Positions 17,456 through 34,117 of a stretch of 64,000 bases of DNA are shown one piece after another. The position numbers were made by a program, and so were the translations under genes. This stretch comes from Escherichia virus TH58, in the sequence record MT446423.1. One strand, written 5' to 3'. Position 1 is the first letter of the stretch; every line of letters begins with the position of its first letter. The notes under the pieces were generated by a model. The model saw only the letters and a program-made list of their open reading frames with translations, had not been told where the DNA came from and ran no database searches.

Positions 17456-20167
17456 ATGAAAGAATTTTACCTAACGGTTGAACAGATTGGTGATTCAATT
17501 TTTGAACGTTACATCGATTCTAATGGCTGTGAACGTACTCGTGAAGTAGAGTATAAGCCATCATTGTTTGCACATTGTCCTGAAAGTCAGGCCACGAAAT
17601 ATTTTGATATCTACGGTAAACCTTGTACTCGTAAACTGTTCGCTAACATGCGTGATGCCTCCCAATGGATTAAACGCATGGAAGATATCGGACTTGAAGC
17701 ACTTGGTATGGACGATTTCAAATTGGCGTATTTGTCTGACACTTATAACTATGAAATCAAATACGACCATACAAAAATTCGTGTGGCTAACTTCGACATC
17801 GAAGTAACATCTCCGGATGGGTTCCCTGAGCCGTCGCAAGCAAAACATCCGATTGATGCTATCACCCATTATGACTCAATTGACGACAGGTTCTACGTAT
17901 TTGATCTATTGAATTCTCCATATGGTAATGTGGAAGAATGGTCTATCGAAATTGCAGCTAAGCTTCAAGAACAAGGTGGTGATGAAGTTCCATCCGAAAT
18001 TATCGACAAAATCGTTTATATGCCGTTCGATAACGAAAAAGAATTGTTGATGGAATATCTCAACTTCTGGCAACAGAAAACTCCTGTCATTTTGACTGGA
18101 TGGAACGTTGAGTCATTTGATATTCCATATGTGTATAACCGAATCAAGAATATTTTTGGCGAATCTACTGCGAAACGTTTATCACCACATCGTAAAACTC
18201 GTGTTAAAGTTATCGAAAACATGTATGGTTCTCGTGAAATCATTACATTGTTCGGTATCTCTGTTCTTGATTACATTGACCTTTACAAAAAATTCTCTTT
18301 TACCAATCAACCGTCGTATTCTCTGGATTACATTTCAGAATTTGAATTGAACGTTGGTAAACTGAAATATGACGGCCCTATTTCTAAGCTTCGTGAAAGC
18401 AATCACCAACGATATATTTCTTATAACATTATCGACGTGTATCGTGTATTGCAAATTGATGCTAAGCGTCAGTTCATCAACTTGAGTTTGGACATGGGTT
18501 ATTATGCTAAGATACAGATTCAATCTGTGTTTAGTCCAATTAAAACATGGGATGCTATTATTTTTAATAGCCTTAAAGAGCAGAACAAGGTGATTCCACA
18601 AGGTCGTTCTCATCCGGTTCAACCTTATCCTGGCGCTTTTGTTAAGGAACCTATTCCAAATCGATACAAATATGTAATGAGTTTCGACCTTACATCTCTG
18701 TATCCAAGTATTATTCGCCAAGTGAATATTAGCCCAGAAACAATAGCAGGAACGTTTAAAGTAGCTCCATTGCATGATTATATTAACGCTGTTGCTGAAC
18801 GTCCTTCTGATGTGTACAGTTGTTCTCCTAACGGCATGATGTATTATAAAGACCGTGATGGTGTAGTTCCAACTGAAATCACTAAAGTCTTTAATCAACG
18901 TAAAGAACATAAAGGTTACATGCTTGCAGCTCAACGTAATGGTGAAATAATTAAAGAGGCATTGCATAATCCTAATCTTTCTGTCGACGAACCATTAGAT
19001 GTTGATTATCGTTTCGACTTCAGTGATGAGATTAAAGAAAAGATTAAAAAGTTGTCTGCTAAATCTCTTAATGAAATGTTGTTTAGAGCTCAACGTACTG
19101 AAGTTGCAGGTATGACTGCCCAAATTAACCGTAAATTGCTTATCAACTCACTTTATGGTGCACTTGGCAACGTTTGGTTCCGTTATTATGATTTGCGTAA
19201 TGCTACCGCAATCACAACATTTGGTCAAATGGCTTTACAGTGGATTGAACGTAAAGTTAATGAATATCTGAATGAAGTTTGTGGTACAGAAGGTGAAGCT
19301 TTCGTTCTATATGGTGATACAGACTCTATTTACGTATCTGCTGATAAAATTATCGATAAGGTTGGTGAATCTAAATTCCGTGATACCAACCATTGGGTAG
19401 ACTTCTTAGATAAGTTTGCACGTGAACGTATGGAACCAGCTATTGATAGAGGTTTCCGTGAAATGTGTGAATACATGAACAATAAACAACACTTAATGTT
19501 CATGGACCGAGAAGCTATCGCTGGTCCTCCGCTCGGTTCTAAAGGTATTGGTGGATTCTGGACTGGTAAGAAACGTTATGCATTAAACGTGTGGGACATG
19601 GAAGGTACTCGTTACGCTGAGCCTAAACTCAAAATAATGGGTCTAGAGACTCAGAAATCTTCGACTCCTAAAGCAGTACAGAAAGCTCTTAAAGAATGTA
19701 TTCGTCGTATGCTTCAAGAAGGTGAAGAATCATTACAAGAATATTTTAAAGAGTTTGAAAAAGAATTCCGTCAATTGAATTATATTAGCATCGCGTCGGT
19801 ATCTTCTGCGAATAACATTGCTAAATATGAAGTAGGTGGATTCCCGGGTCCTAAATGCCCGTTCCATATTCGTGGAATTCTGACGTATAACCGGGCTATC
19901 AAAGGTAATATCGATGCACCGCAAGTTGTAGAAGGTGAAAAAGTATATGTTCTGCCTTTACGTGAAGGAAACCCATTCGGTGATAAATGTATCGCATGGC
20001 CTTCTGGTACTGAAATCACAGATTTAATTAAAGACGACGTACTTCATTGGATGGACTACACTGTTCTCCTTGAGAAGACATTTATTAAACCACTTGAAGG
20101 ATTCACATCAGCAGCGAAACTCGATTACGAGAAGAAAGCATCTCTGTTCGATATGTTCGATTTTTGA
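17456..20167 (+). CDS. 43: DNA polymerase gp43 (family B)
   Basis: 903 aa; exonuclease motif FDIEV, polymerase motifs DLTSLYPSII and YGDTDSIYV; sequence matches RB69 gp43 as remembered. Confidence 0.97.
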   Translation: MKEFYLTVEQIGDSIFERYIDSNGCERTREVEYKPSLFAHCPESQATKYFDIYGKPCTRKLFANMRDASQWIKRMEDIGLEALGMDDFKLAYLSDTYNYEIKYDHTKIRVANFDIEVTSPDGFPEPSQAKHPIDAITHYDSIDDRFYVFDLLNSPYGNVEEWSIEIAAKLQEQGGDEVPSEIIDKIVYMPFDNEKELLMEYLNFWQQKTPVILTGWNVESFDIPYVYNRIKNIFGESTAKRLSPHRKTRVKVIENMYGSREIITLFGISVLDYIDLYKKFSFTNQPSYSLDYISEFELNVGKLKYDGPISKLRESNHQRYISYNIIDVYRVLQIDAKRQFINLSLDMGYYAKIQIQSVFSPIKTWDAIIFNSLKEQNKVIPQGRSHPVQPYPGAFVKEPIPNRYKYVMSFDLTSLYPSIIRQVNISPETIAGTFKVAPLHDYINAVAERPSDVYSCSPNGMMYYKDRDGVVPTEITKVFNQRKEHKGYMLAAQRNGEIIKEALHNPNLSVDEPLDVDYRFDFSDEIKEKIKKLSAKSLNEMLFRAQRTEVAGMTAQINRKLLINSLYGALGNVWFRYYDLRNATAITTFGQMALQWIERKVNEYLNEVCGTEGEAFVLYGDTDSIYVSADKIIDKVGESKFRDTNHWVDFLDKFARERMEPAIDRGFREMCEYMNNKQHLMFMDREAIAGPPLGSKGIGGFWTGKKRYALNVWDMEGTRYAEPKLKIMGLETQKSSTPKAVQKALKECIRRMLQEGEESLQEYFKEFEKEFRQLNYISIASVSSANNIAKYEVGGFPGPKCPFHIRGILTYNRAIKGNIDAPQVVEGEKVYVLPLREGNPFGDKCIAWPSGTEITDLIKDDVLHWMDYTVLLEKTFIKPLEGFTSAAKLDYEKKASLFDMFDF

Positions 20168-20207: not shown

Positions 20208-20843
20208 ATGAAAACTACTCCTATTACTATCGCTATTGACGCAATCATAAAACAAGCTTCTTCTTTGGCCGCTATGGCCAAAGTAATTAGTCAAAACCCT
20301 GCTCGTTATAATGCTATTCTAGAAACTCTTCGACGCCCAGGACTTAGTAATTATGAAAGTCGTGTAATTATTACAGGTGTTGGTAAGAACGCTAATATCG
20401 CAACTAAAGCTTCTGAGACTTTTGCTTCATTAGGTATTCCTAGCATGTATTTGAACACCGGGCATTATTCTCACGGCGATGCAGGATTCATTGCGCCTAA
20501 TGATGTGTTGATTCATATTAGTCGTTCTGGTAAAACTGAAGAAATGATAGGCGTGGCTAAGCATCTTAAAATGATTCGTCCGAACGTCAAACAGATTCTG
20601 TTGCATTGTAACCCAGACATTCCACAAGAAAATGAAGCCCTTTTTGATTACTCTTTCTGTACAGGCATCGCAGTAGAGGTTGATGAGAATTCTCTGGCTC
20701 CGACTATGTCCACTACATTGTTGTTAGCGCTTATCGATACGTTTGCTATCAACCTTTCGTCTGAACGTGGATTTACCTCTAATGACTTCCTTAAGTTCCA
20801 CCCTGGTGGTGCACTAGGTGCCATGTTACGAGGCGAACAATGA
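20208..20843 (+). CDS. SIS-domain sugar-phosphate isomerase, arabinose-5-phosphate isomerase-like (no CBS domains)
   Basis: GVGKNANIATKASETFASLGIPSMYL..HGDAGFIAPNDVLIHISRSGKTEE matches the KdsD/KpsF/GutQ SIS signature; not found at this locus in T4. Confidence 0.8.
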   Translation: MKTTPITIAIDAIIKQASSLAAMAKVISQNPARYNAILETLRRPGLSNYESRVIITGVGKNANIATKASETFASLGIPSMYLNTGHYSHGDAGFIAPNDVLIHISRSGKTEEMIGVAKHLKMIRPNVKQILLHCNPDIPQENEALFDYSFCTGIAVEVDENSLAPTMSTTLLLALIDTFAINLSSERGFTSNDFLKFHPGGALGAMLRGEQ

Positions 20844-20983
20844 AAGCAATAACAATAGGACTTTTACTATTGATGCTTGTCATGACTATCTACTGGAGCT
20901 TAACGGCTCCAGTAATGATTCCAACACTTGTAATCGGATGGATTATGATTGGACTACAAGCAAAGTATGAATGCTTTAACTAG
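20840..20983 (+). CDS. small hydrophobic protein (47 aa)
   Basis: ORF read by eye; ATG overlaps stop of the SIS gene; two predicted TM segments. Confidence 0.3.
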   Translation: MKAITIGLLLLMLVMTIYWSLTAPVMIPTLVIGWIMIGLQAKYECFN

Positions 20984-20996
20984 AATAGTGTACAAT
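20970..20996 (+). promoter_or_regulatory. putative middle promoter upstream of nucleotidyltransferase-kinase gene
   Basis: MotA-box aaTGCTTTA, 12-nt spacer, -10 TACAAT. Confidence 0.45.
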
Positions 20997-21024
20997 ACTC
21001 CTACTTACCAATGAGGACCACAAC

Positions 21025-22710
21025 ATGAAAAAAGCTGTTATTCTTGGTGCTGGACTGGCAACTCGTTTGTATCCAATAACGCATCATATTCCTAAGGTGC
21101 TTGTTAACTATAAACAAGACACTATTCTGAGCAATTTGTATACAATTTATTCTGACCTTGGCGCAGATGAAATTATTGTAGTAGTTCATTCAAAATTTGC
21201 TGAAACCGTTCGAGCTTATTGTGAGCAAGAAGGGTTCAATGTGACTATTCGTACAGTTGATGAAGCATATGGTTCTGCTTATGCTCTTGCTAAATTGCAC
21301 AAAGATTTAGACGGTCATAATGTAATTGTTAACTGGTGTGATATTATTCCCGATTTTGGTTCATGGTCTTGGAATGTTAACGCAATCTATGTTAAGGGTG
21401 ACGAATGTCGATATAATTTCGACGGTGAAAATATCACTAACGTAGGTTCAACAGGTGGTAATGTTGTAGGAATTTATCAGTTCAAAGACTGGGAATTCTA
21501 TATGGGTTCTACTGATGAGGAAATTCATGAATACTGCAAAGGACGTGATTTCGTAGAATTCCTTTACGGCAGCGCATTCAATAAATCAGAGCTTATGAAT
21601 CTAATTGATTTAGGTGATATGCCTAAACTTGAAAAGGCTCATGAAGTTCGTGAACTTAATCGTAGTTTTAATGCGGTTGAAATTGGTGAAGAAACTGTAA
21701 CTAAATTCGCATTAACCGAACAGGGCCGATCTCTTCAGAAAGATGAGATTTCATGGTATCTTAAAGTGAAATCAGATTCAGTTCCTCAGTTAGTTTCTGT
21801 TAATGAAAATAACTTTGAAATGGAACGCATTAAAGGTAAGCCGGCATTTGAATATATTAAATCCAAATCGAGTCTTGCTCGTCCACAAATTGTTGATGCA
21901 ATTTTAGATGCACTGAAATTCAGCACAGACACTTATTTTGTAAGTCCTGAAACTGTTCGTCGTGATTTCACTAAAGAATTCTATACTAAAGTCATCGATC
22001 GTTGTGAAAGTATTCAACCATTGATTGATTCATTTGGTAAAATCACACATGTGAACTACACTAAGATTGGACGTCTGAAGCCAATGTTGAAACAAGCTTT
22101 AGAACACCTTATTCGTTATCATAACCGTTCTCAGGGACAGTACTCTGTTATTCATGGTGACCCGAACTTCAGTAATACTATGATTACTGATAATGGTGAA
22201 GTAAAGTTTATCGACCCTCGTGGATATTTTGGTGAAACCAAGATTTACGGGCCAAAATTGTATGACGAAGCTAAAGTGCTTTACGCTGTTTCAGGTTATG
22301 ATGAATTCAACGCCAATCCGACCTGGGGACAGTTTACTATTGATGAAATAACCTGTAATGTGACTATTAACATCAATCCATTAGTTTACAAATATGGAAA
22401 GATGAGTTCGTTTAACGTGTATCATCATTTGGCAGTGGCAATTATCTGGATTGCATTAGGTGGTTATTTCAAGAATAATCCACTTAAAGCGGTAGCCGCA
22501 TATTATAAAGGTATGGAACTTCTGACTAAGCAATTACGTAACATGGGCCGTGTACTTCAGGACGGCACTATTAGTTATGATGTAGCAGAACCTGTAACGG
22601 CTACTCTGATTACAAAAAATCCTGGTAAATGGGTACTAACTGATAAAGAAACTGGTGTTTCTTATCGTCCAATCGGTGGCGATAACACTCATCAATGGGA
22701 ACGAATCTAA
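21025..22710 (+). CDS. bifunctional sugar-1-phosphate nucleotidyltransferase / sugar kinase (561 aa)
   Basis: N-terminal GAGLATRL nucleotidyltransferase signature; C-terminal choline-kinase/APH-like kinase fold with HGDPNFSN catalytic loop and FIDPRGYF. Confidence 0.75.
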   Translation: MKKAVILGAGLATRLYPITHHIPKVLVNYKQDTILSNLYTIYSDLGADEIIVVVHSKFAETVRAYCEQEGFNVTIRTVDEAYGSAYALAKLHKDLDGHNVIVNWCDIIPDFGSWSWNVNAIYVKGDECRYNFDGENITNVGSTGGNVVGIYQFKDWEFYMGSTDEEIHEYCKGRDFVEFLYGSAFNKSELMNLIDLGDMPKLEKAHEVRELNRSFNAVEIGEETVTKFALTEQGRSLQKDEISWYLKVKSDSVPQLVSVNENNFEMERIKGKPAFEYIKSKSSLARPQIVDAILDALKFSTDTYFVSPETVRRDFTKEFYTKVIDRCESIQPLIDSFGKITHVNYTKIGRLKPMLKQALEHLIRYHNRSQGQYSVIHGDPNFSNTMITDNGEVKFIDPRGYFGETKIYGPKLYDEAKVLYAVSGYDEFNANPTWGQFTIDEITCNVTININPLVYKYGKMSSFNVYHHLAVAIIWIALGGYFKNNPLKAVAAYYKGMELLTKQLRNMGRVLQDGTISYDVAEPVTATLITKNPGKWVLTDKETGVSYRPIGGDNTHQWERI

Positions 22711-23096
22711 TGCACCGTGTAAAAAACATGCTTAATCTTTGTTTTGACGTCGATGATTGTATAACAGAGTGGAATAACAATCGTGATTACGTGAACTTCA
22801 AACCGGACGTCGAAATGGTGTCTGCCATTAATGCCCTGTATGATGCAGGGCATACCATAACGCTTTACACTGCTCGCGGTATGAAGTCAGTCGGTCCTGG
22901 TCGTATAGCAATTGACATTCTCCCAAGTCTGATTCAGAACTTGGCAAACATTGGATTGAAGTACCATAATTTGCTAACACATAAACCAGTATATGATTGG
23001 ATTATCGACGACAAAGCTATGCGTCCTGACGAATTCAAAGCTCTTATGAATAAAGGCGAATTCGAAACATTTAAATCATATAAACCGAATCTATAA
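22710..23096 (+). CDS. HAD-superfamily phosphatase (128 aa)
   Basis: HAD motif I FDVDDCIT, motif II LYTARG, motif IV IIDDKA; start may instead be ATG 22695. Confidence 0.65.
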   Translation: MHRVKNMLNLCFDVDDCITEWNNNRDYVNFKPDVEMVSAINALYDAGHTITLYTARGMKSVGPGRIAIDILPSLIQNLANIGLKYHNLLTHKPVYDWIIDDKAMRPDEFKALMNKGEFETFKSYKPNL

Positions 23097-23150
23097 TAAT
23101 TTAAGTAAGACCTGCAAAAACCATCGCAACAATTAACGCGAGATGCAAAA

Positions 23151-24311
23151 ATGAATACCTTTAAAATCGGAACGAATTTTGATTTAGCTCTTCTTGATAA
23201 AATCGTAGAGCTCAATAAAACTTATCCTAATAGCTTGATAAACGAAGTATACGGCTCTACAAGAGAAATGGCTTTTGTAGCAGCCAGACCTGATTTTAGG
23301 CTTCCTGACGTTGACAAAAAGATGTTAGAAGATTACGTTAAACGTTGTAACGAATTAGGTATTTGCTTTAACTATACACTCAACACGATAAATCCTGGTT
23401 CAAAAAGAGAACTAGTTGAGTGGAAGAAGAAAGCTATTCAGGATTATGTTCAGTATCTTTGGTCAATAGGTGTATGGCGTATTACTATCGCTAACCCTGT
23501 TGTTATGGAAATTGTTCGTGAAGTCAATAAAGACATTGAGATTGAAGTTTCAACAATTCTACATGTCGATGCTGTAACTCAAATCAAATACTTGCATGAC
23601 CAATATAATATCAAAAAGGTCTGCTGTGGAATTCACAAGAACCGTTCAGTTTCTTTCCTGAAGCGTGCAGCAGAGTTTTGCAATAAGAACAATATAATAT
23701 TTGAAGTTCTTGTAAATGAGTTCTGTTCTAATGCTGGTAAAGGGTATACAACACATTGTAGTTATCGTGACTCTTGCTATATTTTCCATAGCACCGATGT
23801 TACAGTAGATGATGCCAAATCCTTAAATGGATATCCAATGCAACACTGTATTAAAGCTCGTGATACAGATCCATTTAACTGGTTGAGAACTCGTTTTGTT
23901 CGTCCTCAAGATTTGAAACTTTATAATGATATTGGTATCACTCAATTCAAAGTTTCAGGACGTACAGGTAGCACAGACTACATTTTGAAAGTTCTTGAAG
24001 CATACGCTTCTGAAAAGTTTGAAGGTAATTTGTTAGAACTGTGGAAGCCTTTAGAGACTATTTTCACTCTTGAAAACGAAACTGAGTTTTCACATACAGT
24101 AAATATTGAAACCTCTTTGTTAGATGGCTTTTTAGAAAAAAGGTGGTTCAAACATCCAGATTTCGATTGTGCTAATGAAATCTGCGGGACGACGTGTACA
24201 TATTGTGAAAGATATTATAAACGTCAGTTATCTAAAAATGGGTTATCAGAAAACTCTATATCTATTATTGATATAACTAACTCTGACGACGCTTTGAGGT
24301 ACCCAGAATGA
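23151..24311 (+). CDS. Cys-rich enzyme of unknown function, possibly TIM-barrel / peptidase-U32-like (386 aa)
   Basis: Alternating beta-strand/helix pattern and EVLVNEFCSNAGKGYTTHC segment loosely resemble U32-family proteins; C-terminal CANEICGTTCTYC cysteine cluster; assignment uncertain. Confidence 0.55.
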   Translation: MNTFKIGTNFDLALLDKIVELNKTYPNSLINEVYGSTREMAFVAARPDFRLPDVDKKMLEDYVKRCNELGICFNYTLNTINPGSKRELVEWKKKAIQDYVQYLWSIGVWRITIANPVVMEIVREVNKDIEIEVSTILHVDAVTQIKYLHDQYNIKKVCCGIHKNRSVSFLKRAAEFCNKNNIIFEVLVNEFCSNAGKGYTTHCSYRDSCYIFHSTDVTVDDAKSLNGYPMQHCIKARDTDPFNWLRTRFVRPQDLKLYNDIGITQFKVSGRTGSTDYILKVLEAYASEKFEGNLLELWKPLETIFTLENETEFSHTVNIETSLLDGFLEKRWFKHPDFDCANEICGTTCTYCERYYKRQLSKNGLSENSISIIDITNSDDALRYPE

Positions 24312-28370: not shown

Positions 28371-29813
28371 GTGGTAGAAATTATTTTGTCTCATCTAGTA
28401 TATGACCAGGCTTATTTTTCTAAGGTCTGGCCTTATATGGATTCTGAGTATTTTGAGCGTGGACCGGCAAAAAATGTCTTTAAAATTATAAAGAGCCACG
28501 TTAACGAATATAATGCAATGCCATCTATTAATGCGTTAAAGGTGGCTTTAGATAACAGTTCTTTAACTGAAGCCGAATACAAAGGAACTTCAGACCTAAT
28601 TGAAAAATTGGCTGATACTCCTGAAGACCACGAATGGTTGGTTAAAGAAACTGAGAAATATGTCCAGCAAAAAGCGATGTATAATGCTACATCCAAAATC
28701 ATTGAGATTCAGTCTAATGCTGAACTACCTCCAGAACAACGTAACAAGAAAATGCCTGACGTAGGAGCTATTCCTGATATTATGCGTCAAGCACTTTCAA
28801 TTTCGTTTGATAGTTATGTTGGGCATGACTGGATGGAAGACTACGAAGCACGCTGGCTTTCTTATCTAAATAAAGCACGTAAGGTCCCGTTCAAATTAAA
28901 CATTCTGAATAAAATCACTAAAGGTGGTGCTGAAACCGGTACGCTGAATGTTTTAATGGCCGGTGTTAACGTTGGTAAATCTTTAGGCCTTTGTTCACTT
29001 GCTGCAGATTATCTTCAAACAGGTCATAATGTTCTTTATATTTCCATGGAAATGGCCGAAGAAGTTTGTGCTAAGCGTATAGATGCAAACATGCTTGACG
29101 TATCACTCGATGATATCGATGATGGTAACGTATCTTATGCTGAATATAAAGCTAAGATGGAAAAATGGCGTTCAAAATCCACATTAGGACGTTTAGTAGT
29201 TAAACAGTATCCTACTGGCGGAGCTAATGCTAATACATTCCGTGCGTTGCTTAATGAATTGAAACTCAAGAAGAACTTTGTGCCATCTGTAATCATGGTT
29301 GATTACTTAGGTATTTGTGGGTCTTGTCGTATCAGAGTTTACACTGAAAATAGCTACACATTAGTTAAAGCTATCGCAGAAGAACTTCGTGCATTAGCAG
29401 TAGAATCTGAAACAGTTCTATGGACTGCAGCTCAAGTAGGACGTGCAGCATGGGATGCTTCAGACATGAACATGAGCGATATTGCAGAATCAGCAGGTTT
29501 ACCAGCAACTGCAGATTTCATGTTGGCCGTAATTGAAACCGAAGAACTTGCACAAGCTGAACAACAACTTATCAAACAAATCAAATCACGATACGGTGAT
29601 AAGAATAAGTGGAATAAATTCCTGATGGGTGTACGCAAAGGCAACCAGAAATGGGTTGAGATTGAGCAAGAAGGCATGAACACACCTAACACAGTAAATG
29701 AAAACGCAGGTGCTCAGATGCGTCAGGCAGAGGTGAATCGTACGGAACGCGTAGGTAAAGCCAAAGCAACACGTGCTGACCTAGATAGCTTAGCCAATGA
29801 GTTAAAATTTTAA
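28371..29813 (+). CDS. 41: replicative DNA helicase gp41 (DnaB-like), GTG start
   Basis: 480 aa starting VEIILSHL; Walker A AGVNVGKSLGL; matches T4 gp41 as remembered, which also begins MVEIIL. Confidence 0.95.
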   Translation: MVEIILSHLVYDQAYFSKVWPYMDSEYFERGPAKNVFKIIKSHVNEYNAMPSINALKVALDNSSLTEAEYKGTSDLIEKLADTPEDHEWLVKETEKYVQQKAMYNATSKIIEIQSNAELPPEQRNKKMPDVGAIPDIMRQALSISFDSYVGHDWMEDYEARWLSYLNKARKVPFKLNILNKITKGGAETGTLNVLMAGVNVGKSLGLCSLAADYLQTGHNVLYISMEMAEEVCAKRIDANMLDVSLDDIDDGNVSYAEYKAKMEKWRSKSTLGRLVVKQYPTGGANANTFRALLNELKLKKNFVPSVIMVDYLGICGSCRIRVYTENSYTLVKAIAEELRALAVESETVLWTAAQVGRAAWDASDMNMSDIAESAGLPATADFMLAVIETEELAQAEQQLIKQIKSRYGDKNKWNKFLMGVRKGNQKWVEIEQEGMNTPNTVNENAGAQMRQAEVNRTERVGKAKATRADLDSLANELKF

Positions 29814-29819
29814 TAAAAA

Positions 29820-29838
29820 GGAGACTTCGGTCTCCTTT
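29820..29838 (+). terminator. putative terminator hairpin after gene 41
   Basis: GGAGAC-ttcg-GTCTCC followed by TTTCGGGGTTT. Confidence 0.4.
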
Positions 29839-29842
29839 CGGG

Positions 29843-29872
29843 GTTTACATCTTCCTCTAGGCATGGTATGAT
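29843..29872 (+). promoter_or_regulatory. early promoter (-35 GTTTAC, -10 TATGAT)
   Basis: GTTTAC, about 18-nt spacer, TATGAT. Confidence 0.5.
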
Positions 29873-29901
29873 AGACTTACACCAACCAAGAGGAGAACAA
29901 A

Positions 29902-30219
29902 ATGAAAACCATCGATTGTAAAGCAGAATTTAAGATTTTTTATCACGGTTCAAGTAGTTCAGCTAACATCGAAAACATGCTTTGCCCTCCTGAAGAAACA
30001 GGAGTTCTGTCTGAAACTGGACGTAAGAAAAACTTGGATCGTGTATTCTTTACTGAAGATATCGGTTTAGCAAAGATTTATGCAGGACGAGCAGCACGCT
30101 CTTATGGAGGTGAACCACGTCTCTATCGAGTAATTTCTCCGGTGGACGTAGTTCAAATGAATAATACTAAAGGTGCTACAGTTTATCACGCTGAATGGGC
30201 ATTTTGCGAGGAAATATGA
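29902..30219 (+). CDS. hypothetical protein (105 aa)
   Basis: Track ORF with AGAGGAGAA SD. Confidence 0.5.
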   Translation: MKTIDCKAEFKIFYHGSSSSANIENMLCPPEETGVLSETGRKKNLDRVFFTEDIGLAKIYAGRAARSYGGEPRLYRVISPVDVVQMNNTKGATVYHAEWAFCEEI

Positions 30220-30407
30220 GCAAATTAACTAAAGTTACTTTTATCGGTTGGTTTAAAAGCGGCGAGATGTTCACTAAAGATATCATGTTATCAGGTGATC
30301 GCGAAGAAATCGAGTGGGTTGCGGTACAACTTGCTGAAGTGAACAACGCATTAGTTAAAGCATTTGTTAATGACGAGAAAGTTTTTGAAGCTGATTTCAG
30401 AGGATAA
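30216..30407 (+). CDS. dmd: Dmd-like antitoxin (discriminator of mRNA degradation)
   Basis: Internal ATG (MSKLTKVTFIGWFKSGEMFTKDI..) of track ORF 30195-30407; about 63 aa; resembles T4 Dmd as remembered; position between 41 and sp. Confidence 0.6.
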   Translation: MSKLTKVTFIGWFKSGEMFTKDIMLSGDREEIEWVAVQLAEVNNALVKAFVNDEKVFEADFRG

Positions 30408-30408
30408 T

Positions 30409-30621
30409 ATGTATTCAACTGTGTTTAAACCATCAACATACGAATTTGCATCAACTACACAATGGAAAGCTCTTATTCTGGAAGGATGGGAACTAATGAT
30501 GGACTGTGAAGCATCTGAAAAGTTTCCACACGGCAAAGTGGACTTCGTTAAATTTGCTGTACGTCCGACTAAACGACAGATTCGTCAAGAAAAACGCAAA
30601 TTTCGCAAAAGTTTAAAATAA
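30409..30621 (+). CDS. small basic hypothetical protein (70 aa)
   Basis: Internal ATG of track ORF 30364-30621; basic tail FAVRPTKRQIRQEKRKFRK, shared with ORF 591-788. Confidence 0.45.
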   Translation: MYSTVFKPSTYEFASTTQWKALILEGWELMMDCEASEKFPHGKVDFVKFAVRPTKRQIRQEKRKFRKSLK

Positions 30622-30623
30622 CT

Positions 30624-30653
30624 GTTTACAAGCATCGCATACTGTGTTACTAT
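30624..30653 (+). promoter_or_regulatory. early promoter (-35 GTTTAC, -10 TACTAT)
   Basis: GTTTAC, about 18-nt spacer, TACTAT; upstream of lipoprotein gene. Confidence 0.5.
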
Positions 30654-30681
30654 CTTTCTATCAACTACAGAGGAAATTGAA

Positions 30682-31050
30682 ATGAAAAAATTAATCGCTT
30701 TAGCAATGGTATTTGGATTAACCGGATGTGGTGCCCATGGCTTTATCCCTAATAACGTTGGCCAACTGATTTACAATCCGAATGTTAAACAGTATGACCA
30801 ACCTAAAGTTGAAGTGGAAGACCCGGTTACTGTAGGTAATCGAATGATTCAAGCTGATGCTCATGCTCAACGTTATCGTGACTCTGATACTGTAGCATTG
30901 TCAAAAGAACAACGCGTTAAAGAACATTGTCTACAGGCTACTGAAATCGCATTCATTCGCTATGTTGAAACAACTGGTAAAGAGCCTACCCAGAAACAAA
31001 TCGCGAATAACTACGTCCAGTGTATTGAACGTTTAAACAAATTTAATTAA
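30682..31050 (+). CDS. lipoprotein (122 aa)
   Basis: Signal peptide with lipobox LTGC (MKKLIALAMVFGLTGCG). Confidence 0.6.
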   Translation: MKKLIALAMVFGLTGCGAHGFIPNNVGQLIYNPNVKQYDQPKVEVEDPVTVGNRMIQADAHAQRYRDSDTVALSKEQRVKEHCLQATEIAFIRYVETTGKEPTQKQIANNYVQCIERLNKFN

Positions 31051-31053
31051 TTG

Positions 31054-31083
31054 GTTTACACCAAAGTTAAAATAAGATATTAT
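31054..31083 (+). promoter_or_regulatory. early promoter (-35 GTTTAC, -10 TATTAT)
   Basis: GTTTAC, about 18-nt spacer, TATTAT. Confidence 0.5.
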
Positions 31084-31111
31084 AAACATAACAAATCAAG
31101 AGGAAATTAAC

Positions 31112-31360
31112 ATGGAATTATTCGTAGCTAGTTCAGTAGCAGTTTTAATCGCAGGTATTGGTTCAATCATCATTTACATGTTGCCTTGGGTAATCGCACT
31201 TATTCGTGGCACAAAAAGCACAACAGCAATCTTCTTTGTATCTTTACTCTTTAACTGGACGATGATTGGTTGGATTGGAACTTTAATTTGGTCTATCGTT
31301 GCCGAAAAGAAATCTGCTCAGCAGCCTCAACAAGTAATTATTATTCGCGAAAAAGAATAA
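31112..31360 (+). CDS. imm: superinfection-immunity (Imm-family) membrane protein (82 aa)
   Basis: Two TM segments with IALIRGTKSTTAIFFVSLLFNWTMIGWIGTLIW, resembling the Imm superinfection-immunity family; not at the T4 imm locus. Confidence 0.55.
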   Translation: MELFVASSVAVLIAGIGSIIIYMLPWVIALIRGTKSTTAIFFVSLLFNWTMIGWIGTLIWSIVAEKKSAQQPQQVIIIREKE

Positions 31361-31363
31361 ACT

Positions 31364-31393
31364 TGTTTACATTATAGATGGACTATGGTATAG
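31364..31393 (+). promoter_or_regulatory. early promoter (-35 GTTTAC, -10 TATAGT)
   Basis: GTTTAC, about 18-nt spacer, TATAGT then AGTCCTATC. Confidence 0.5.
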
Positions 31394-31423
31394 TAGTCCT
31401 ATCAAATCAACTAAGGAGTTAAA

Positions 31424-31717
31424 ATGAAAAAGTTATCATTGGCAGCAATCTTACTTGCAGTATCATGTGCACCAGCTCCAGTTACGGCAGGTTATGATAA
31501 AGACCTCTGTGAGTGGTCAATGACTGCAAATCAAGAAGATGTTGAACAACAAATCTTCTCTGATATCATGAACATCACTAAACGAGACCGTCCTAATATG
31601 GTTAATAAAGTTGTTGGACAACTTAAGTCTGGCGGTATCATGCAGTACAACTATGTTTTGTATTGTGACCCTAATTTCGATAACAAAGATATCGTAACCG
31701 AAATCACAGGTGAATAA
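31424..31717 (+). CDS. sp: spackle periplasmic protein Sp (superinfection exclusion / lysis inhibition)
   Basis: 97 aa with signal peptide; GYDKDLCEWSMTA..SGGIMQYNYVLYCDPNF matches T4 Sp as remembered. Confidence 0.85.
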   Translation: MKKLSLAAILLAVSCAPAPVTAGYDKDLCEWSMTANQEDVEQQIFSDIMNITKRDRPNMVNKVVGQLKSGGIMQYNYVLYCDPNFDNKDIVTEITGE

Positions 31718-31718
31718 T

Positions 31719-32369
31719 ATGATTTATTATATGCACAAAAATGCACCGTTTAAATATGGTAAATTTCCTAATGCACAATGTTATAATATAACGCCGAATG
31801 AAAATAATAACGGATATCATATTGGTGTAATTTTTGTAATTGTTAAAGATAACGAAATCGTTGCCTGGGCAGATTTTAAAGGTACAACATATGATGTTAA
31901 TCCTGTGCCTTTCACATATTACAATATAATGGATTTGGCATATGATTATAATTGGTTTACTCATGACACGTTGGATCATATTGAAGGTGTAGGATTTGAC
32001 ATCTCTTATTCTAGCTATTCATTATGTCCTATGAGCCGAGCTCACGGTAAAGATGTATCATATCTTTCAATTCGGAAACGTGTAAACTTCAAACGTAGTA
32101 CAGAGTATGTTGGTGGTCTCTTTGTTAAAGATAATAAAATAACCCGTATTAGTTATCCTTTAAGTGTAGGTCAAAAAGATGTTGATGTTGATTTAGACTT
32201 AACTGAAAGTAACATTAATCGTATTGCTTCTGTATATTTTGATATCGATGAAAAAATTGTAGTGTGTGGATACGAATTACCACCTGAAGAAAAGGCTGAA
32301 ACAATTGAAGTCGAATTAGAAATTTCTGTTGATGACCAAATATTTAATGCATTTATGAATCGAGGTTAA
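31719..32369 (+). CDS. hypothetical protein (216 aa)
   Basis: Track ORF 31710-32369, start refined to first ATG. Confidence 0.5.
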   Translation: MIYYMHKNAPFKYGKFPNAQCYNITPNENNNGYHIGVIFVIVKDNEIVAWADFKGTTYDVNPVPFTYYNIMDLAYDYNWFTHDTLDHIEGVGFDISYSSYSLCPMSRAHGKDVSYLSIRKRVNFKRSTEYVGGLFVKDNKITRISYPLSVGQKDVDVDLDLTESNINRIASVYFDIDEKIVVCGYELPPEEKAETIEVELEISVDDQIFNAFMNRG

Positions 32370-32370
32370 A

Positions 32371-32568
32371 ATGACTACTGCAATTTGCACTGGTTCTAAA
32401 ATTAGTGTTTTTACAAGTTTTGAAGATTATGAAGTTGTTTCAAAACACCAATGCCATATTAGCGTAAAAGCTAATGATGGTGTAATTTGGAATATTCCAC
32501 ACTATGAAGACACTACATATGAAGTCACAGATGCGAACGGTGATAAAGCGATCTTTGTGATTGATTAA
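32371..32568 (+). CDS. hypothetical protein (65 aa)
   Basis: Track ORF. Confidence 0.4.
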   Translation: MTTAICTGSKISVFTSFEDYEVVSKHQCHISVKANDGVIWNIPHYEDTTYEVTDANGDKAIFVID

Positions 32569-32587
32569 ATATACTCAGGAGGTACCT

Positions 32588-33055
32588 ATGGGTATTATTA
32601 ACACTGCAATAGATTCTGTTTATGCATATAAGTTTATTCGACTAATGCAAAAACCTTTTACCGAATGGAAAGCATACGAAGCCAAAATCATCGATGAACG
32701 TGGAAGTGTTCTTAAACGCCCTTCCACTCCCGAAGAGAAAGCTGCGTATACACCTTTTCATGCTTCAGTTCGTTCAATGAAGCGAATGATGAGCACTATT
32801 CCAGGTCTTAATGGAATGGCCTCAATGATGTCTGCCTGGAGTGCTGTAGCTTCACGCTATAACATTACGGAAGAACAACAGAAAGAAATATTTAAAGAAC
32901 TCCCTTTATTTGAGGATATGGTTGCTGGTGATTCAGGTGGCAGCCCTCAAGCTATTGCATCAGGAACAACTACAGGTGCAGTCGTAAATAAAGGTCCAGA
33001 AAAAATTCCTTCCAAGAAAAGAAAGCGAATTAAAGTAAATATTAATAAGTTGTGA
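32588..33055 (+). CDS. hypothetical protein (155 aa)
   Basis: Internal ATG of track ORF 32561-33055 preceded by CAGGAGGT. Confidence 0.5.
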   Translation: MGIINTAIDSVYAYKFIRLMQKPFTEWKAYEAKIIDERGSVLKRPSTPEEKAAYTPFHASVRSMKRMMSTIPGLNGMASMMSAWSAVASRYNITEEQQKEIFKELPLFEDMVAGDSGGSPQAIASGTTTGAVVNKGPEKIPSKKRKRIKVNINKL

Positions 33056-33094
33056 TATGATGGCCTTATTAATTTAAGGCCTCTGGAGAATACT

Positions 33095-34117
33095 ATGGCT
33101 GAATGGATAGATAATGAATTTGCTTATCGTGCGTTTTCTCACCTACCTCGTTTTAGACAAATCAATAATTCAAGCACATTTAAATTAACATTTCGATGCC
33201 CAGTTTGTGGCGACTCCCAGACAGATGCAATGAAAGCTCGCGGATGGTATTATGGCGGTACTCCAGGTAATGTGCATTGCTATAACTGTCAATATCATAA
33301 TACGATTTCCGGATACTTAAAAGAGTATGACGAAGAGCTTTATCGTGAATATCTAATGGAAGTTCGTAAAGAAAAAGCTAGAATGGAACCAAAGATTGAA
33401 AAGGTTCCTGAACATAAACCAGAACCGGAGAAAAAGACTATAAATTCTTTGCCGTCTTGTTCTCGTCTGGACAAGTTGCCTGAAGAGCATCCTATTGTGA
33501 AATATGTTAAGTCTCGGTGTATTCCTAAAGAATCATGGAACAGATTATGGTTCACATTAGAATGGCCTAAATTGGTCAACAAGATTCAACCAGGCACGTA
33601 TAAGAAAGAGATTCCAGAACCGCGTTTAGTGATTCCTATTTTTAATAAAGACGGGAAGGCTGAGTCATTTCAAGGACGTGCACTTCGCAAAGATGCTCCT
33701 CAGAAATATATCACTATTAAAGCGTTTGAGTCTGCAACAAAAATTTATGGTGTTGAACGTGTTAAGGAAGGAGACGTCTGGGTAATGGAAGGCCCTATTG
33801 ATAGTTTATTCATACCCAATGCAATCGCTATTACAGGCGGCTCAATAGATTTAGATGTGGTACCATTTAAAGAACGTCGGGTATGGGTGATGGATAATGA
33901 ACCTAGGCATCCGGATACTATAGCTCGTATGAAGCGATTAGTAGATGCAGGCGAACGTGTTATGTTCTGGGATAGAGCTCCATGGAGTTCAAAGGATGTG
34001 AATGATATGGTAATGAAAGAAAATGCAACACCACAAGAAATTTTAGAATATATGAAACAGAATATTTCAAGTGGGTTGCATGCTAAAATGAGATTATCTC
34101 GTTATTCGAAGATTTAA
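33095..34117 (+). CDS. 61: DNA primase gp61
   Basis: 340 aa; N-terminal zinc ribbon CPVCGDS..CYNC; WIDNEFAYRAF..NNSSTFKL start matches T4 primase as remembered. Confidence 0.92.
   Translation: MAEWIDNEFAYRAFSHLPRFRQINNSSTFKLTFRCPVCGDSQTDAMKARGWYYGGTPGNVHCYNCQYHNTISGYLKEYDEELYREYLMEVRKEKARMEPKIEKVPEHKPEPEKKTINSLPSCSRLDKLPEEHPIVKYVKSRCIPKESWNRLWFTLEWPKLVNKIQPGTYKKEIPEPRLVIPIFNKDGKAESFQGRALRKDAPQKYITIKAFESATKIYGVERVKEGDVWVMEGPIDSLFIPNAIAITGGSIDLDVVPFKERRVWVMDNEPRHPDTIARMKRLVDAGERVMFWDRAPWSSKDVNDMVMKENATPQEILEYMKQNISSGLHAKMRLSRYSKI

Follow-up and report, generated by a model that had tools for sequence, protein, structure and literature searches.

The imm.1–imm–sp cluster of Escherichia virus TH58 as a putative RB69-type arrangement of T-even envelope-protection genes

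Two proteins of phage T4 act in the cell envelope against superinfecting phages. Spackle (Sp, gp61.3) inhibits, in the periplasm, the gp5 lysozyme of incoming tail spikes (PMC7677548, PMC7650644), and Imm blocks the passage of superinfecting DNA across the inner membrane while leaving adsorption unaffected (PMC6832632). A structural mechanism became available, in 2020, for the Spackle half only; how Imm stops DNA injection has been a question since the 1970s–1990s. Here we analyse a 64,000-nucleotide stretch of Escherichia virus TH58 (MT446423.1; hereafter the window), in which the genes imm and sp stand in a row with imm.1, encoding a predicted lipoprotein, at positions 30624–31717. The cluster probably represents how T-even early genes guarding the envelope of the infected cell against later phages are arranged in Mosigvirus (RB69 type). 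What the analysis adds is that imm almost never travels without the fast-evolving lipoprotein gene imm.1, and that a single relocation has very probably placed the pair next to sp.

Over the 3.3 kb spanning genes 41 to 61, the sequence shares 98% nucleotide identity with Escherichia phages F2, HX01, ST0, JN02 and ~150 others. One of the 98%-identical records, LR027383, is classified in Tevenvirinae; Mosigvirus, RB69 group, and on this similarity the stretch is that of a Mosigvirus (RB69-like) phage. The cluster itself is ordinary and already known: public Mosigvirus records name all three genes, LR027383 as ‘Imm.1 conserved hypothetical predicted membrane protein’, ‘imm immunity to superinfection membrane protein’ and ‘sp spackle periplasmic protein’. 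The interest of the locus lies in Imm.1 as a possible third member, so far overlooked and open to test, of the T-even exclusion machinery. A contribution of Imm.1 would give a textbook system one more layer and would be relevant to the design of phage cocktails, in which T-even phages exclude each other; if it makes none, the cluster is a reshuffled set of known genes.

Identification of imm.1, imm and sp

The three genes are as follows:

30682–31050, plus strand: imm.1, encoding a 122-residue predicted lipoprotein with lipobox LTG-C16 and Gly at +2; homolog of T4 Imm.1 (ORF 42.2)
31112–31360, plus strand: imm, encoding an 82-residue inner-membrane superinfection-immunity protein with two hydrophobic segments
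31424–31717, plus strand: sp (gene 61.3), encoding a 97-residue Spackle with a signal peptide, the predicted periplasmic inhibitor of the tail-spike gp5 lysozyme

These open reading frames (ORFs) are separated by intergenic gaps of 60–63 bp, and each of the three ATG codons has a Shine-Dalgarno sequence upstream (GAGGAAATT for imm.1, GAGGAAATT for imm and AAGGAG for sp). Pfam bit scores exceed the family cut-offs for the imm.1 product (37.3 against 27), Imm (57.2 against 27.9) and Spackle (143.3 against 27), and the corresponding PHROG matches are phrog_1754 (E 5e-29), phrog_1039, ‘immunity to superinfection’ (1e-30), and phrog_1586 (2e-41). Because these family scores lie well above the Pfam and PHROG thresholds, imm.1, imm and sp are real genes rather than chance ORFs, and we regard the three identities as practically certain. 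None of the three proteins had a match in NCBIfam or PADLOC.

The original prediction had described three consecutive small genes here, which is what we find, and had taken the lipoprotein for an extra factor without an obvious T4 counterpart, which is not. The protein is a homolog of T4 Imm.1 (ORF 42.2 of M37159; 32% identity, BLASTP E 1e-18), and since the T4 gene likewise lies directly upstream of imm, imm.1 is not an extra gene. The protein matches Pfam DUF5481 (PF17578) with E 3.7e-9; T4 Imm.1 is the founding type of that family, matching it at 5e-72, and also matches phrog_1754. The two proteins have in common the lipobox, two conserved cysteines, a YNPNVK motif and the place of their genes immediately upstream of imm. 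They differ in the +2 residue, Val in T4 and Gly in this phage, and in an extra cysteine pair of T4 (NCSSKF...KCY) that is absent here.

The 82-residue protein had been called Imm-like, with failure in Imm-family profile searches named in advance as an outcome that would speak against it. It matches Pfam Imm_superinfect (PF14373) with E 1.5e-15, covering the full 42-position model, and T4 Imm (ORF 42.1 of M37159) with 65% identity over 82/83 residues (E 3e-37). A hydropathy scan gave hydrophobic ranges at residues 1–34 and 40–59, followed by a short tail, and the two proteins resemble each other in length (82 and 83 residues), in their two long hydrophobic segments and in a C-terminal QVIIIREKE tail. 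By these likenesses the protein is Imm, a close ortholog of T4 Imm, and in both phages imm is an early gene directly downstream of imm.1. The settings differ: imm lies between 61.4 and sp here, whereas in T4 it lies between 43 and 42, and the imm.1–imm gap is 61 bp with a promoter motif here, against 8–11 bp and no promoter in T4.

The third gene had been named sp, and the searches agree. Its product matches Pfam T4_Spackle (PF25676; E 3.7e-42) and the solved T4 Spackle chains (PDB 6X6O, 3.3e-39, residues 1–97; 7CN6, 2.5e-33), and is 66% identical to a T4-like Sp. Its only hydrophobic segment is N-terminal, a signal peptide with a small-residue signal peptidase I (SPase I) site, V-T-A before G at residues 20–23. 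In the T4 Spackle crystal structure a disulfide joins Cys29 and Cys81, and gp5 contacts the Ser32–Ala35 main chain, Gln37 and Asn76 (PMC7677548); Cys29, Cys81, S32-M33-T34-A35, Gln37 and Asn76 are all retained in this phage. T4 Spackle (gp61.3; PDB 6X6O, 6XC0, 7CN6) and the protein studied here thus have the same length (97 residues), disulfide cysteines and gp5-contact residues, an SPase I site at residues 20–22 (A-M-A in T4, V-T-A here) and the same genomic position before 61.2, and differ in the upstream neighbour of their genes, which is imm here and 61.4 in T4. Judged by this homology, the third gene is sp, encoding Spackle.

Ser14-Cys15 (31463–31468), within the Spackle signal peptide, does not vary among 11 Sp homologs with identities as low as 46%, and the remainder of the signal peptide is variable. 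The context of these two residues is a canonical lipobox in most homologs (LASC in one T4-type sequence, VASC or VSSC); it reads AVSC here. N-terminal sequencing of T4 gp61.3 released from the periplasm shows cleavage after residue 22 (PMC7650644). Because a lipidated, membrane-bound Spackle would not have been released in that experiment, dual processing of Spackle, with a lipidated fraction, is a possibility.

Linkage of imm.1 and imm and their position beside sp

The linkage of the two genes was followed in 80 IMG/VR loci retrieved with an Imm alignment, together with public loci and this window. A gene was counted as an adjacent imm.1 where it matched an Imm.1-family hidden Markov model (HMM), shared the strand of imm and was separated from it by no more than ~150 bp. 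An Imm.1-family ORF adjoins imm in 31/31 T4-like loci, all IMG/VR contigs of 100 kb or more included. The other Imm_superinfect loci, on contigs of 75 kb or less, gave an Imm.1-family match in 0/60 cases and a credible adjacent lipobox ORF in 0/60. In tblastn searches of the phage collection the two genes occur near one-to-one: Imm was found in 153 records at 95% identity or more (Mosigvirus-level) and in 503 at 60–90% (Tequatrovirus-level), and Imm.1 in 154 Mosigvirus-level and 502 Tequatrovirus-level records, to which Dhakavirus-type and Klebsiella-type Imm.1 add 128 and 148 records.

The gene orders outside Mosigvirus are:

Tequatrovirus including T4: 43 – (78-residue ORF) – imm.1 – imm – 42
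Moonvirus Merlin, Klebsiella phage Roth76 and Gelderlandvirus (Proteus phage ABTNLPp2): 43 – (optional small ORF) – imm.1-like – imm – 42
Dhakavirus (AnYang) and Gaprivervirus (P896): 43 – imm – imm.1-like, in reversed order

The imm.1-like lipoproteins of the genera in the last two lines comprise 146–167 residues and match phrog_1754 (2e-15 to 4e-52), the Klebsiella type also matching phrog_18344. In T4-like phages, imm.1 and imm are a linked pair, in either gene order. Kanagawavirus (Edwardsiella phage PEi20, NC_028683, and Enterobacter phage CIP9) encodes an Imm.1-family lipoprotein of 169–175 residues directly after gene 43, and the neighbour of imm.1 there is an arabinose-5-phosphate isomerase cassette, not imm. 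An ORF of PEi20 annotated ‘spackle periplasmic’ had no match from a small Spackle HMM.

Among the genera checked (eight or more), the pair stands next to sp only in Mosigvirus; elsewhere it follows gene 43, and in a T4-like genome sp directly follows 61.4. The original prediction had placed T4 imm between genes 42 and 43 and a sugar cassette in the same site here, and both placements are borne out. The T4 order is 43 – 78-residue ORF – imm.1 – imm – 42. In the window, gene 43 (17456–20167) is separated from gene 42 by a module (20208–24311) encoding a 211-residue SIS-domain protein, a 561-residue nucleoside triphosphate (NTP)-transferase-like protein, a 133-residue ORF and a 386-residue U32-like protein. 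The sizes and domains match the RB69 module that has been linked to arabinosyl-hydroxymethylcytosine (arabinosyl-hmC) DNA, for which it is proposed to synthesize UDP-arabinose (PMC6024577). Cassettes related to this sugar module adjoin imm or imm.1 in Dhakavirus and Kanagawavirus. The statement that an Imm-like gene sits beside sp stands in so far as imm adjoins sp, but it is the whole imm.1–imm pair that sits there, not imm alone. Among the matches listed, tblastn gave one place per record for imm and one for imm.1, and thus no sign of a second copy of either. With the lipoprotein identified as Imm.1, what distinguishes the phage from T4 is a moved pair and not an added gene, and the whole pair, rather than imm alone, has very probably been relocated as a unit.

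Each gene of the cluster is preceded by an early-promoter motif:

30624–30653, plus strand: early-promoter motif of imm.1, GTTTACA-N17-TACTAT with TG before the -10 box, starting 2 nt past the 61.4 stop codon
31054–31083, plus strand: early-promoter motif of imm, GTTTACA-N17-TATTAT
31365–31394, plus strand: early-promoter motif of sp, GTTTACA-N17-TATAGT with TG before the -10 box

The pattern GTTTAC-N18-TANNNT occurs 13 times in the whole window, always on the plus strand, against 0.9 copies expected from shuffles, and the copies at 30624, 31054 and 31365 occupy the three ~60-bp gaps. Compared with the T4/PST early-promoter consensus TTTACW-N17-TAYWAT (PMC4122927), the motifs of imm.1 (TTTACA-N17-TACTAT) and imm (TTTACA-N17-TATTAT) match in full, and that of sp (TTTACA-N17-TATAGT) has one mismatch. 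One putative early promoter for each gene of the island, as had been proposed, is therefore supported at the motif level only. The other T4-like loci checked have a single early-promoter motif just upstream of the imm.1/imm pair, and three per-gene motifs are found only in Mosigvirus. A search of 29700–33200 for terminator-like sites gave just one, inside a 105-residue ORF upstream, and none between the three genes. With no such site between them, transcripts from successive promoters should add up downstream, and sp would be the most highly expressed of the three.

The imm.1 promoter motif occupies the same spot past the 61.4 stop codon as the sp promoter in a T4-like phage, and the 3′ end of 61.4 aligns with that phage up to the GTTTAC box. 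Past this box, the leaders of this phage, T4, Dhakavirus and a Klebsiella phage are ~52–66% alike, the one higher value, 75%, being that of the imm.1 leader of this phage against the imm leader of Dhakavirus; a search for repeats flanking the cassette found short leader similarities only. Since all early leaders are similarly alike, the location of a crossover is not resolvable, which has to be held against the relocation account.

Early promoters are described as recombination points of T4-type genomes in the promoter-early stem-loop (PeSL) model (PMC2839356, PMC4122927). The island resembles PeSL cassettes of T4-type phages in its small genes within a variable region, in early promoters near the consensus and in the presence of a module at a new site; both the 43–42 slot and the 41–61 interval are variable regions. 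It differs from them in that its three promoters lack the upstream stem-loop that defines PeSL (there is no room for one, because the -35 box starts 2–5 nt after each stop codon) and in that no recombination junction can be mapped. The Mosigvirus arrangement would stem from promoter-mediated module shuffling of the kind described for T4-type phages, an origin that is plausible, not demonstrated.

Proposed role of Imm.1 and alternative explanations

In the proposed scheme, Sp would be exported to the periplasm, where it would bind and inhibit the gp5 lysozyme of incoming tail spikes, as suggested by its 66% identity and conserved contact residues. Imm, in the inner membrane, would stop incoming DNA from crossing, given its 65% identity to T4 Imm, for which this has been shown genetically. 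Imm.1, made early and held in the periplasm by an outer-membrane anchor, would serve the same envelope protection, probably in an accessory role or by conferring specificity. From its anatomy and its linkage to imm we infer that Imm.1 may take part in exclusion or envelope protection, a proposal that we place just short of an even chance. That it acts directly with Imm is a tentative suggestion and rather unlikely. Equally speculative is a fuller picture, in which Imm.1 would account for the ability of so small a protein as Imm to stop DNA entry: anchored in the outer membrane by a long tether, it would join Imm in the inner membrane to bar the way of the incoming tail tube at two layers across the periplasm, the range of phages excluded would depend on its fast-evolving helical domain, and the pair together with Sp would constitute a transferable Mosigvirus exclusion island.

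The N-terminus of Imm.1, MKKLIALAMVFGLTGC, carries the canonical lipobox LTGC (also given as MKKLIALAMVFGLTG before C), and a hydropathy scan found residues 4–22, of the N-terminal signal type, as its sole hydrophobic stretch. Across 12 members from 8 or more genera, Lys2, Gly15-Cys16, Tyr31, Cys83 and Cys114 are invariant and Leu13 and Gln37 nearly so, and most members have a (D/E/N/S)VG(Q/K) motif after the lipid anchor. The residue following the lipobox Cys is G, V, A, Q or S in the homologs and Asp in 0/12; with no Asp at this position, the E. coli ‘+2 rule’ of Lol sorting predicts an outer-membrane localisation, and Imm.1 is thus predicted to be a lipoprotein sorted by Lol to the inner face of the outer membrane.

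An AlphaFold2 (AF2) model of Imm.1 has a predicted local distance difference test (pLDDT) score of 62 overall, with low confidence for residues 1–47, and shows helices at residues 48–67, 75–98 and 104–120 (pLDDT 72–90). The invariant cysteines fall in helices 2 and 3, and Cys83 and Cys114 probably form a periplasmic disulfide. Imm.1 would have a flexible tether of ~30 residues, bearing a conserved motif, and after it a small helical domain. In one Imm.1 homolog, on a 1550-bp contig and 46% identical to the protein of this phage, the lipobox Cys is replaced by Phe (LAGF-SAHA; 2 member sequences); the homolog would be a soluble periplasmic protein, or else its sequence contains an error.

A word-indexed protein search with Imm.1 gave 3 matches; a profile was also run exhaustively against 1.84 billion cluster representatives, of which 8 reached E 0.001 or better. 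With only 8 profile matches, the family appears small and confined to T4-like phages, and the relatives from the exhaustive search offered no functional lead. A literature search on imm.1, DUF5481 and PF14373 found no function described for Imm.1.

Several observations weigh against a role of Imm.1 in exclusion or a partnership with Imm. Gene order is strongly conserved among T4-type genomes in general, which makes adjacency by itself a weak argument for shared function. Lu and Henning reportedly found in 1989 that plasmid-borne T4 imm alone gives exclusion, and Imm would therefore not be strictly in need of Imm.1. When all six frames of the complete PEi20 genome (177.6 kb) were searched with the Imm HMM and without filters, no match was better than E 0.1; because PEi20 has Imm.1 without Imm, Imm.1 cannot depend strictly on Imm. 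Foldseek comparison of the Imm.1 model, which is only moderately confident, gave nothing informative against the PDB (best E 3.0) and only its own family against viral structures. The literature search found no paper mentioning DUF5481.

The alternative that survives best is that Imm.1 does a job in the envelope that has nothing to do with Imm, both genes being old residents of the post-43 slot that were shuffled as a block. The presence of Imm.1 without Imm in PEi20 (Kanagawavirus) fits this explanation, as do the lack of an Imm.1 neighbour in all of the non-T4-like Imm-family loci (0/60) and the faster divergence of Imm.1 than of Imm between T4 and this phage (32% against 65% identity). However, the genes have remained adjacent despite a change of order (Dhakavirus, Gaprivervirus), a change of site (Mosigvirus) and the insertion of sugar cassettes beside them, and in most genera one early promoter is common to the pair. 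The slot is also highly plastic (PMC6024577), so passive retention of adjacency is less expected. We take an unrelated role to be a serious contender, though on balance a doubtful one.

The position beside sp might instead be adaptive, an ‘exclusion island’ selected for joint inheritance or regulation rather than produced by neutral shuffling. All three known or suspected exclusion genes do lie within 1.1 kb, each with an early-promoter motif, and the arrangement is fixed in ~154 Mosigvirus records. Yet it is confined to one genus of the eight or more examined, with 8–10 kb between the genes in every other, and the 41–61 interval in which it lies is itself variable (a T4-like phage lacks the 105-residue ORF, and a further insertion of ~430 bp is found in close relatives). 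The arabinose module that fills the Mosigvirus 43–42 slot offers a simple non-adaptive reason for the displacement, and we judge selection for an island improbable; neutral shuffling of the pair remains our preferred account of its position.

Receptor masking, which the original prediction had also offered as a role for the lipoprotein, is a further possibility: in the manner of T5 Llp or Cor, Imm.1 would block the outer-membrane receptor and so keep later phages or released progeny from adsorbing. T5 Llp is an outer-membrane lipoprotein that blocks the receptor FhuA (PMC9586334); like Imm.1 it is a small lipoprotein made early by the phage and, by prediction, located on the periplasmic side of the outer membrane, a resemblance in way of working only. 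No similarity of the two in sequence or fold was found. Imm.1 is small, early, disulfide-capable and predicted to reside in the outer membrane, and its fast divergence could track receptor diversity. Against this, secondary phages still adsorb to T4-infected cells, exclusion is post-adsorption and lysis inhibition needs secondary adsorption (PMC6832632), so T4-type exclusion, unlike the action of Llp, leaves adsorption unblocked. The moderate-confidence Imm.1 model matched no solved structure (Foldseek against the PDB, best E 3), T5 Llp included if it is deposited, and the family spans phages of Escherichia, Klebsiella, Citrobacter, Proteus and Edwardsiella, whose receptors probably differ. 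Masking of a receptor is accordingly a very improbable function for Imm.1.

A lysis device like a two-component spanin, suggested by the side-by-side genes for an outer-membrane-type lipoprotein and an inner-membrane protein, can practically be dismissed, as the 82 residues of Imm make up two hydrophobic segments and a short tail but no periplasmic domain, the promoter motifs are early and not late, PseT.3 and PseT.2 already serve as spanins in T4-type phages (annotated as such in PEi20), and imm has a known exclusion phenotype.

Neighbouring genes and annotation of the locus

An Rfam scan of 29700–33200 on both strands gave no credible match. In HX01 (RefSeq NC_018855.1, 86684–87049) the Imm.1 homolog is labelled ‘iduronate sulfatase’, and in several RAST-annotated genomes it is labelled ‘immunity protein’; neither label was backed by any profile search that we ran.

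The gene order around the cluster is 41, 105-residue ORF, dmd, 61.4, imm.1, imm, sp, 61.2, 65-residue ORF, 61.1 and 61. After gene 41, a stem-loop GGAGAC-TTCG-GTCTCC followed by TTT, an early-promoter motif at 29843–29872 and the 105-residue ORF (span 29814–30219) are, by their sequence features, a PeSL-like cassette, the sole such combination of stem-loop and promoter seen. The 105-residue ORF belongs to phrog_2110 and has no Pfam match; it is absent from a T4-like genome, in which dmd directly follows 41. Most close relatives have ~430 bp more after gene 41, and in LR027383 a 124-residue ORF, absent here, lies between 41 and the 105-residue ORF. Directly 3′ of sp, the product of 61.2 (31719–32369) matches the Pfam family AdfA (anti-DarT factor A) at 1.9e-117, and an anti-defence gene therefore abuts the exclusion genes.

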